A stretch of DNA of 64,000 nt, taken from the NCBI GenBank assembly GCA_964016885.1, contig OZ024741.1, positions 216,442,001 through 216,506,000 of the forward strand, written 5' to 3'. Below the pieces are notes generated by a model. That model was not told the origin of the DNA. It did not search any database and worked only from the letters and a program-made list of their open reading frames with translations. Of the stretch, positions 16,835 through 16,905 are shown in pieces. The position numbers were made by a program, and so were the translations under genes. This stretch comes from Eledone cirrhosa. Its lineage: Eukaryota. The stretch's first letter is position 1, and each line of letters opens with the position of its first letter.

Positions 16835-16905
16835 GACCACCGGTGGACAAGCAGTACTGTTGGAAGGGGTCGAAACTGCCAGAAGTACATCTCGATGGCT
16901 GAAGA
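16835..16905 (+). ncRNA. candidate permuted (pseudoknotted) hammerhead ribozyme, family C
   Basis: gacc..ggtggac aa gcag-UA-ctgttgg aagg ggtc-GAAA-ctgc cagaa gtacatc tcgatgg-CUGAAGA. Stem I is wobble-rich. Confidence 0.5.

Follow-up and report, generated by a model that had tools for sequence, protein, structure and literature searches.

A candidate hammerhead variant in rearranged order within a high-copy repeat of Eledone cirrhosa, most likely of retroelement origin

What do the conserved words of a hammerhead ribozyme specify when they occur in the wrong order? The question is raised by a locus at 16797-16914 (+) of a 64,000-nt window of the Eledone cirrhosa genome (the whole stretch of DNA analysed here), animal-type DNA that is rich in microsatellites and contains several fragments of retroelements. 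The locus falls outside the canonical hammerhead types I-III, as its cyclic order is reversed and it has no match in Rfam. The explanation that we regard as best, and as probably correct, is that of a decayed copy of a hammerhead variant, likely self-cleaving, which came from the 3' end of a retroelement; this element was most likely a Penelope-like element of the Naiad type.

Core letters and helices at 16797-16914

A direct check of the sequence located all segments of the preliminary description, and both its segment list and its block order, site (S), GAAA (G) and CUGANGA (C), were borne out with every element in place. The core letters CUGANGA, GAAA and NUH are complete at 16899-905, 16872-75 and 16854-56, respectively, and stems I and III lie on either side of the core in the proper register. 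All segments lie on the forward strand. The stem II' 5' strand (16835-38 in the window copy, 16835-16840 in the majority of family C, the repeat to which the locus belongs) pairs with 16866-71 and supplies a G10.1-C11.1-like pair. It is followed by 16842-16850, comprising the 5' strand of the outer helix P0 (16842-48 with 16885-91, one mismatch and one G-U) and the 2-nt side of a kink-turn-like loop. Block S (16851-16863) contains the stem III 3' strand, the GUA triplet and the stem I 3' strand; stem III pairs 16851-54 with 16876-79, the triplet at 16854-56 sets the predicted cut after A16856 (U16855-A16856), and stem I pairs 16857-63 with 16892-98. The four G-U pairs in stem I and the single outer-helix mismatch are present as first read. 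A linker and block G (stem II' 3' strand, GAAA and stem III 5' strand) occupy 16864-16879, succeeded by a 3-nt bulge, two non-canonical pairs and the P0 3' strand at 16880-16891, in a register of 4 bp, 3 nt and 9 pairs that is common to three families of the window (A, B and C), and by the stem I 5' strand with the CUGAAGA core at 16892-16905.

A helix is thus present next to G12, in the position of stem II, with a strand derived from upstream; this stem II' measures 4 bp in the window copy, against 6 bp in the family majority. The 4-nt linker given in the preliminary description applies to the window copy, whereas in the majority the linker is 2 nt. The fold described there stands as far as it went, but helices P4 and P5 and the kink-turn-like loop had been missed, the extent was too short, and A9 had been left unlinked to stem II. 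Immediately 3' of A9, 16906-16914 forms the 3' strand of P4, of which the 5' strand is 16797-16805; 16797-802 pairs with 16909-14, and G16805 with 16906 at the junction. P4 has six Watson-Crick pairs in the window copy, with pair probabilities of 0.72-1.0. The P5 hairpin (16806-16834), decayed in this copy, lies directly 5' of the stem II' strand. In total, the layout has seven helices.

Against the strand preceding GAAA, the bases after A9 form 0, 0 and 1 bp in families C, B and A, respectively; in all three they pair instead with the upstream strand as P4, in the order P4, hairpin P5 and stem II' strand. Core, P4, P5 and II' meet with 0-1 unpaired bases per side in families A and B and at two further loci, L065 and L129. 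A predicted four-way junction thus takes the place of the canonical stem II. P4 and P5, which are part of no search pattern, were assessed by shuffling the upstream 60 nt in 1000 trials; shuffles matched the observed P4 and P5 in 0 cases for B, 13 for A, 0 each for L065 and L129, and 2 for L073. The window copy of family C is within chance in this test (529 of 1000 shuffles as good), whereas the family C majority, whose letters repair P4 and P5 pairs, does show the two helices above chance. Over C, B, A, L065 and L129, paired cells amount to 20/20 in stem III, 30/30 in stem I, 20/20 in II', 27/30 in P0, 27/30 in P5 and 25/25 in P4, with registers that were set by hand because MAFFT could not align four unrelated families; pair types differ among the five while the pairing holds. 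Two other roles were considered for these segments and rejected: the upstream strand as a duplicated, vestigial CUGANGA block (its bases form the P5 3' arm, and the repeat is absent in A and B) and G8-A9 pairing with stem II' as an off-switch (not conserved).

On the other side of the core, stem III in A, B and C consists of 4 bp plus an A-U, followed by the 3-nt bulge and a 9-pair helix which opens with G.A/A.G in A, G.A/A.U in B and A.A/A.A in C (A.C in the majority). The two key kink-turn adenines (1n and 2b) are present in A, B, C and L065. Compared with published kink-turn descriptions, family A and L065 match the standard type (3-nt bulge, then G.A and A.G) and family B resembles the Kt-23 type with G.A and A.U, whereas family C has A.A and A.C/A.A in place of the standard G.A and A.G, and coral-type copies carry a long stem III with a plain bulge and no kink-turn. 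Eckert et al. (PMC10085705) raise as a geometric puzzle that the I-II helix is joined to stem III by short links; a sharp bend at the loop, as proposed here, would solve it.

Copies of family C and two unrelated families with the same fold

Four of six public runs of the organism, representing at most three samples and two studies, were matched to 16560-16990 at 80% likeness. Family C proved to be a high-copy repeat of about 180 bp, found in 879 contigs of run X1, 854 contigs of run X3, and 229 and 242 reads of two RAD runs. Depth in X1 rises from about 4-10 in the flank to 170-7000 between ~16770 and 16950 and behaves similarly in X3, depth being no measure of copy number; from this rise the window copy extends approximately over 16770-16950 (+), without attached coding sequence. 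The locus is single-copy within the window, and the expectation that it would be multi-copy in the genome is confirmed by the runs. The further proposal that the motif is very common genome-wide holds for family C and is shown for no other family. Each run gave one tandem (129-nt) and one inverted joint. A separate repeat, of which copies at 17000-17196, 58383-58492 and 59547-59742 are 95-97% identical, starts 50 bp past family C.

Among the 40 of 148 differences listed, 11 positions in 16797-16914 have an X1 majority letter unlike the window. Eight of these lie in helices, and all eight turn a mismatch or wobble into a Watson-Crick pair, none breaking a pair: 16807 and 16809 in P5 (C in 66% and G in 59%, regaining pairs with 16833 and 16831), 16839 in II' (C in 81% of depth, giving the 6-bp stem), 16858, 16894 and 16896 in stem I (C in 65%, A in 67% and C in 63%), 16887 in P0 (C in 80%, repairing the mismatch) and 16906 in P4 (C in 77%, pairing with G16805). 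The remaining three (16841, 16849 and 16864) are in linkers or a loop. The anticipation that a consensus would restore pairing is therefore upheld at three of the four stem I G-U pairs and at the outer-helix mismatch. In the same listed set, the GAAA positions show no difference, and the core differs only at U4 (16900, C in 26%) and N7 (16903, T in 42%).

Loose-end sequences carry C4 and U7 together, which suggests that family C has two subfamilies, U4/A7 and C4/U7. The A at N7 would then mark a subfamily and not decay. The U4C change is reported to lower activity in vitro yet to permit viroid infectivity (PMC3088659). In the DNA data, ends do not accumulate where the cut is predicted. The window copy is the worst-paired of the three in the window, as the preliminary description had it in calling it more decayed than A and B, but at the family level the comparison covers C only. 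As eight of its pairs are weakened, this copy is probably slow or dead, and we consider it unlikely to be active.

The block-order descriptor (S-G-C) was built after viewing the family C locus; of its three matches in the window (16855+, 51742+ and 26951-), only the latter two are therefore independent of it. By chance the descriptor yields 0.023 matches per window in 300 simulated windows, and a fuller descriptor 1 in 300. Family A (26894-26997, -) has unrelated sequence and the same fold, with standard kink-turn pairs and (TA)n on both sides of the insertion; family B (51695-51800, +), likewise unrelated in sequence with the same fold, is the best-paired copy of the window, and a second B copy (51117-51190, +) lies in partial tandem and lacks its site block through internal deletion. 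The three families share only short words (best local scores 12-23), and have in common the block order, the GAAA-to-CUGANGA spacing and a G12-to-C3 spacing of 27 nt. A spacing-only pattern found the three loci and the deleted family B copy, compared to 0 in 100 shuffles, which is circular for the three. An Rfam scan of the window gave nothing at gathering and locally four chance matches at E<=10, with no hammerhead model among them. Single-strand folding was unremarkable (z -0.25 to 2.2), and nested folding of the family C copy gave P0, III and I a probability of 0.00, the program being unable to form pseudoknots. The layout at 16797-16914 is real, conserved and not a product of chance, and the preliminary reading is supported; that it is a conserved fold of RNA we hold to be highly probable.

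Several other elements were observed in the window. A Penelope-like element with an ORF at 22276-24321+ (reverse transcriptase (RT) plus a C-terminal GIY-YIG-like region) has canonical minimal type-I hammerheads in its repeats (20193-, 24527+, 37403- and 38757+), and seven more canonical candidates lie at 25010+, 24887-, 52831-, 33420-, 26455+, 25787- and 27827-, making eleven type-I candidates by the computed list, plus one by eye at 28241-. A 118-bp tandem repeat of 3.2 copies at 15593-15974 (+) contains GAAA and CTGATGA words that fit neither descriptor. A dispersed repeat at ~32900-33030 (+) adjoins (ATGT)n or (TA)n tracts and contains a CUGANGA-like word at 33006; it has look-alikes near 12900, 17400-17570 and 2300-3200 and may be a further ribozyme family. 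A fragmented non-LTR RT element with RVT_1 matches occupies 8315-11421 (+) and is, judging by motifs, presumably R4-like. The tandem array at 55744-57857, with units of 104-116 bp, gives the impression of possible tRNA-derived SINE heads.

Known hammerheads and the carrier element

Six hammerhead permutations were described by Eckert et al. in 2023 on the assumption of uninterrupted blocks, of which types SGC and CSG were validated for cleavage in vitro; the non-circular types were reported from no genome of a known organism (PMC10085705). Type SGC (HRIMA-1 and variants) has the same order of site, GAAA and CUGANGA as the layout described here, and both possess a short linker between the 3' strands of stems I and II, an additional helix that connects the opposite sides of these two stems, and a short connection from that helix to stem III (PMC10085705). 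However, type SGC presupposes an unbroken block C in which CUGANGA is followed immediately by stem II, a position at which 0, 0 and 1 bp form in C, B and A; here, unlike in type SGC, the stem II' strand precedes all the blocks and is separated from the 5' side by a hairpin, and P4 takes up the nucleotides that follow A9. The sources also differ, as type SGC comes from metatranscriptomes (PMC10085705) and the layout here from animal retroelement DNA. The layout would work as type SGC does but lacks the unbroken block C, and we therefore place it outside type SGC, as a new variant in the hammerhead class set apart by the broken CUGANGA-stem II link. Type CSG, represented by five soil-DNA sequences in the same article, shares the reversed cyclic order and the I-II helix, but its stem II directly follows A9 without a four-way junction. 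The minimal type-I hammerheads in the pseudo-LTRs of canonical Penelope-like elements (Cervera and de la Pena 2014, cited in PMC8557442) have the same 3'-end position and a presumed role in processing tandem transcripts, as proposed here, and differ in their canonical order, three-way junction and lack of a tertiary helix. In the openly readable literature, we found no earlier description of such a rearranged hammerhead or of a Naiad ribozyme. A preprint on retrozymes and Penelope-like elements, in its available part, names Naiads only as a clade (10.64898/2026.07.22.740005).

Naiads were reported to be without canonical hammerheads (Craig et al. 2021, PMC8557442), and that article annotates core words in their 3' regions as 'HHR_core' and 'HHR_half_core' that fit no descriptor. 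These are the same core words as in our layout, in the same 3' regions, and the authors saw no fitting fold. The 54 published Naiad consensi (PMC8557442, File S5) were inspected by eye in excerpts, mostly the last 300 nt, so that counts are lower bounds. The full layout was recognised near the 3' end of at least nine of the 54, from four animal phyla: Amil, Aacu and Anas (near-identical, from corals), 3_Chem, 2_Movir, Plae, EuTe, Obim and Ovul; two more, Esco and Bfor, show it more weakly. Two Octopus consensi have, by eye, the 27-nt spacing of family C and its 6+1+9+4 upstream register. At least seven nematode Naiads (1-3_Nbra, Hcon, Hpol, Asuum and one Pristionchus) carry by eye the type-CSG order with a I-II helix. 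The layout was not seen by eye in the excerpts of bivalve, hemichordate and fish Naiads, some of which appeared twister-like; spider and ostracod Naiads have a CUGANGA word in a context that fits no parse. Among these excerpts, 1_Movir and the mussel Naiads contain twister-like words as compared by eye with the twister consensus, and oyster and hemichordate Naiads have another conserved 3' motif in common.

The fold was also found outside the organism. A metagenome scan that covered 6 of the collection's 64 parts returned at least 118 loci; 12 of the 118 passed the helix descriptor, compared to none of the 33 pattern matches (18 and 15) in viral contigs. Eighteen hand-picked metagenome loci included L065 and 15 copies of one family from two assemblies, near-identical by eye to the Acropora Naiad tail. 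In the alignment of 14 of these copies (L101 was dropped as truncated), 92% of cells pair; two-sided changes occur at 4 of 49 pairs, with 304 of 500 shuffles as high, and covariation within this family is weak. L065 (1821-1941) is unrelated in sequence and has every helix and a standard kink-turn. The final codons of a LINE-type ORF, which encodes RT and a zinc knuckle, fall within this fold, with the stop codon in the P5 loop. Protein relatives of this ORF occur in bivalves, lancelets and fish, and none of its C-terminal domain was found in the viral or prokaryote contigs searched. That domain resembles a restriction-like endonuclease, and the element resembles HERO/NeSL. Judged from this ORF, L065 may represent a second carrier class, a retroelement other than Naiad, for the fold.

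Which element carried family C is accordingly the point on which an alternative fares best. Provided that the fold is real, family C could, with the same ribozyme, instead represent a short non-autonomous element, or else the tail of a non-LTR element that has a restriction-like endonuclease, a possibility that deserves weight while remaining the less probable one. It draws on the overlap of the L065 fold with an RT and zinc-knuckle ORF, on the stem II' strands and the 12-nt exact match that L065 and family C have in common, and on the size of family C, only ~180 bp with no ORF attached. Naiads are characterised by an ORF with RT and an N-terminal GIY-YIG; a motif scan of the window found no Naiad coding motif (including RT) beside A, B or C, and the parentage of family C is therefore inferred; the copies are short, so that this result does not exclude a Naiad link. 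Against the non-LTR alternative, the T/G-rich flanks of family C and its end ~40 nt past the core resemble Naiad tails, and (TA)n flanks for A and B, a partial tandem for B, and one tandem and one inverted joint per run for C may correspond to the (TA)n targets, partial tandems and inverted ends described for Naiads (PMC8557442). On balance we lean towards a Naiad origin of family C.

Predicted cleavage and its alternatives

Based on the predicted fold, stem II' would take the stacking position of canonical stem II beneath G12-A9, and P4 and P5 would stack on each other as a side arm; because of these two stacks, the chain would leave the core at A9 and re-enter it at 10.1. The 2-4-nt linker from stem I to stem II' and P0 may together clamp the two stems, replacing the usual loop-loop contact, with the 3-nt-bulge loop kinking P0 back from stem III so that it could reach stems I and II'. 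Hammerheads cleave by transesterification. Intact members of the layout would cut by this usual chemistry after the NUH triplet (A16856 here), and self-cleavage by such members is predicted with considerable confidence. Cutting may trim read-through or tandem transcripts of the element; a role in transcript processing has been hypothesised for other Penelope-like hammerheads (PMC8557442). The same layout in the tails of Naiads reported without hammerheads makes it a likely self-cutting RNA of these elements.

It is improbable, in comparison, that the layout descends from a hammerhead but lacks catalysis and is conserved as an RNA of another kind, for instance a reverse-transcriptase binding element or a 3'-end signal. 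The hammerhead articles consulted offered no precedent for a break between A9 and stem II, and the likely presence of a U4C subfamily would fit such a loss of function. However, CUGANGA, GAAA and NUH are kept in unrelated families while the helices vary, N7 being the variable position, and in the excerpts seen, the corresponding position in other Naiads holds type-CSG or twister-like motifs, which suggests that cleavage is under selection. Less plausible still is an ordinary type-SGC hammerhead whose stem II arises from the nucleotides that immediately follow CUGANGA, or one to which the adjoining unit of a tandem or circle adds the missing part. One contig per run has the 129-nt tandem joint, and the stem II' 3' strand of family C would be able to pair with the bases that begin at G8; such pairing would use up G8 and A9, a downstream stem II has a length of 0, 0 and 1 bp in C, B and A, and the post-A9 bases pair within P4 in all five families. 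A chance arrangement of short words in repetitive DNA, to which the four G-U pairs and several mismatches of the window copy and its ordinary folding z-scores might be ascribed, is already largely refuted and of negligible probability because the majority letters restore pairs, and is opposed also by the rarity of simulated matches, the shuffle tests, the pairing in five families and the independent occurrences in metagenome loci and published consensi.

Returning to the hammerhead variant as the preferred reading, we consider it rather probable that the layout adds a seventh architecture to the natural hammerheads, one in which the CUGANGA-stem II block is split, a four-way junction is present and a kink-turn is frequent. 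This architecture would serve as the ribozyme of many Naiads in at least four animal phyla and would also have been picked up by a LINE, with nematode Naiads using type CSG. Current hammerhead descriptors would then miss a possibly large class. If true, the CUGANGA block would prove separable from stem II, contrary to the stated rule, and non-circular hammerheads would extend from uncultured RNA to animal genomes, where they would be abundant, and not rarities of metatranscriptomes. It would also explain the apparent absence of ribozymes in the very successful Naiad clade.
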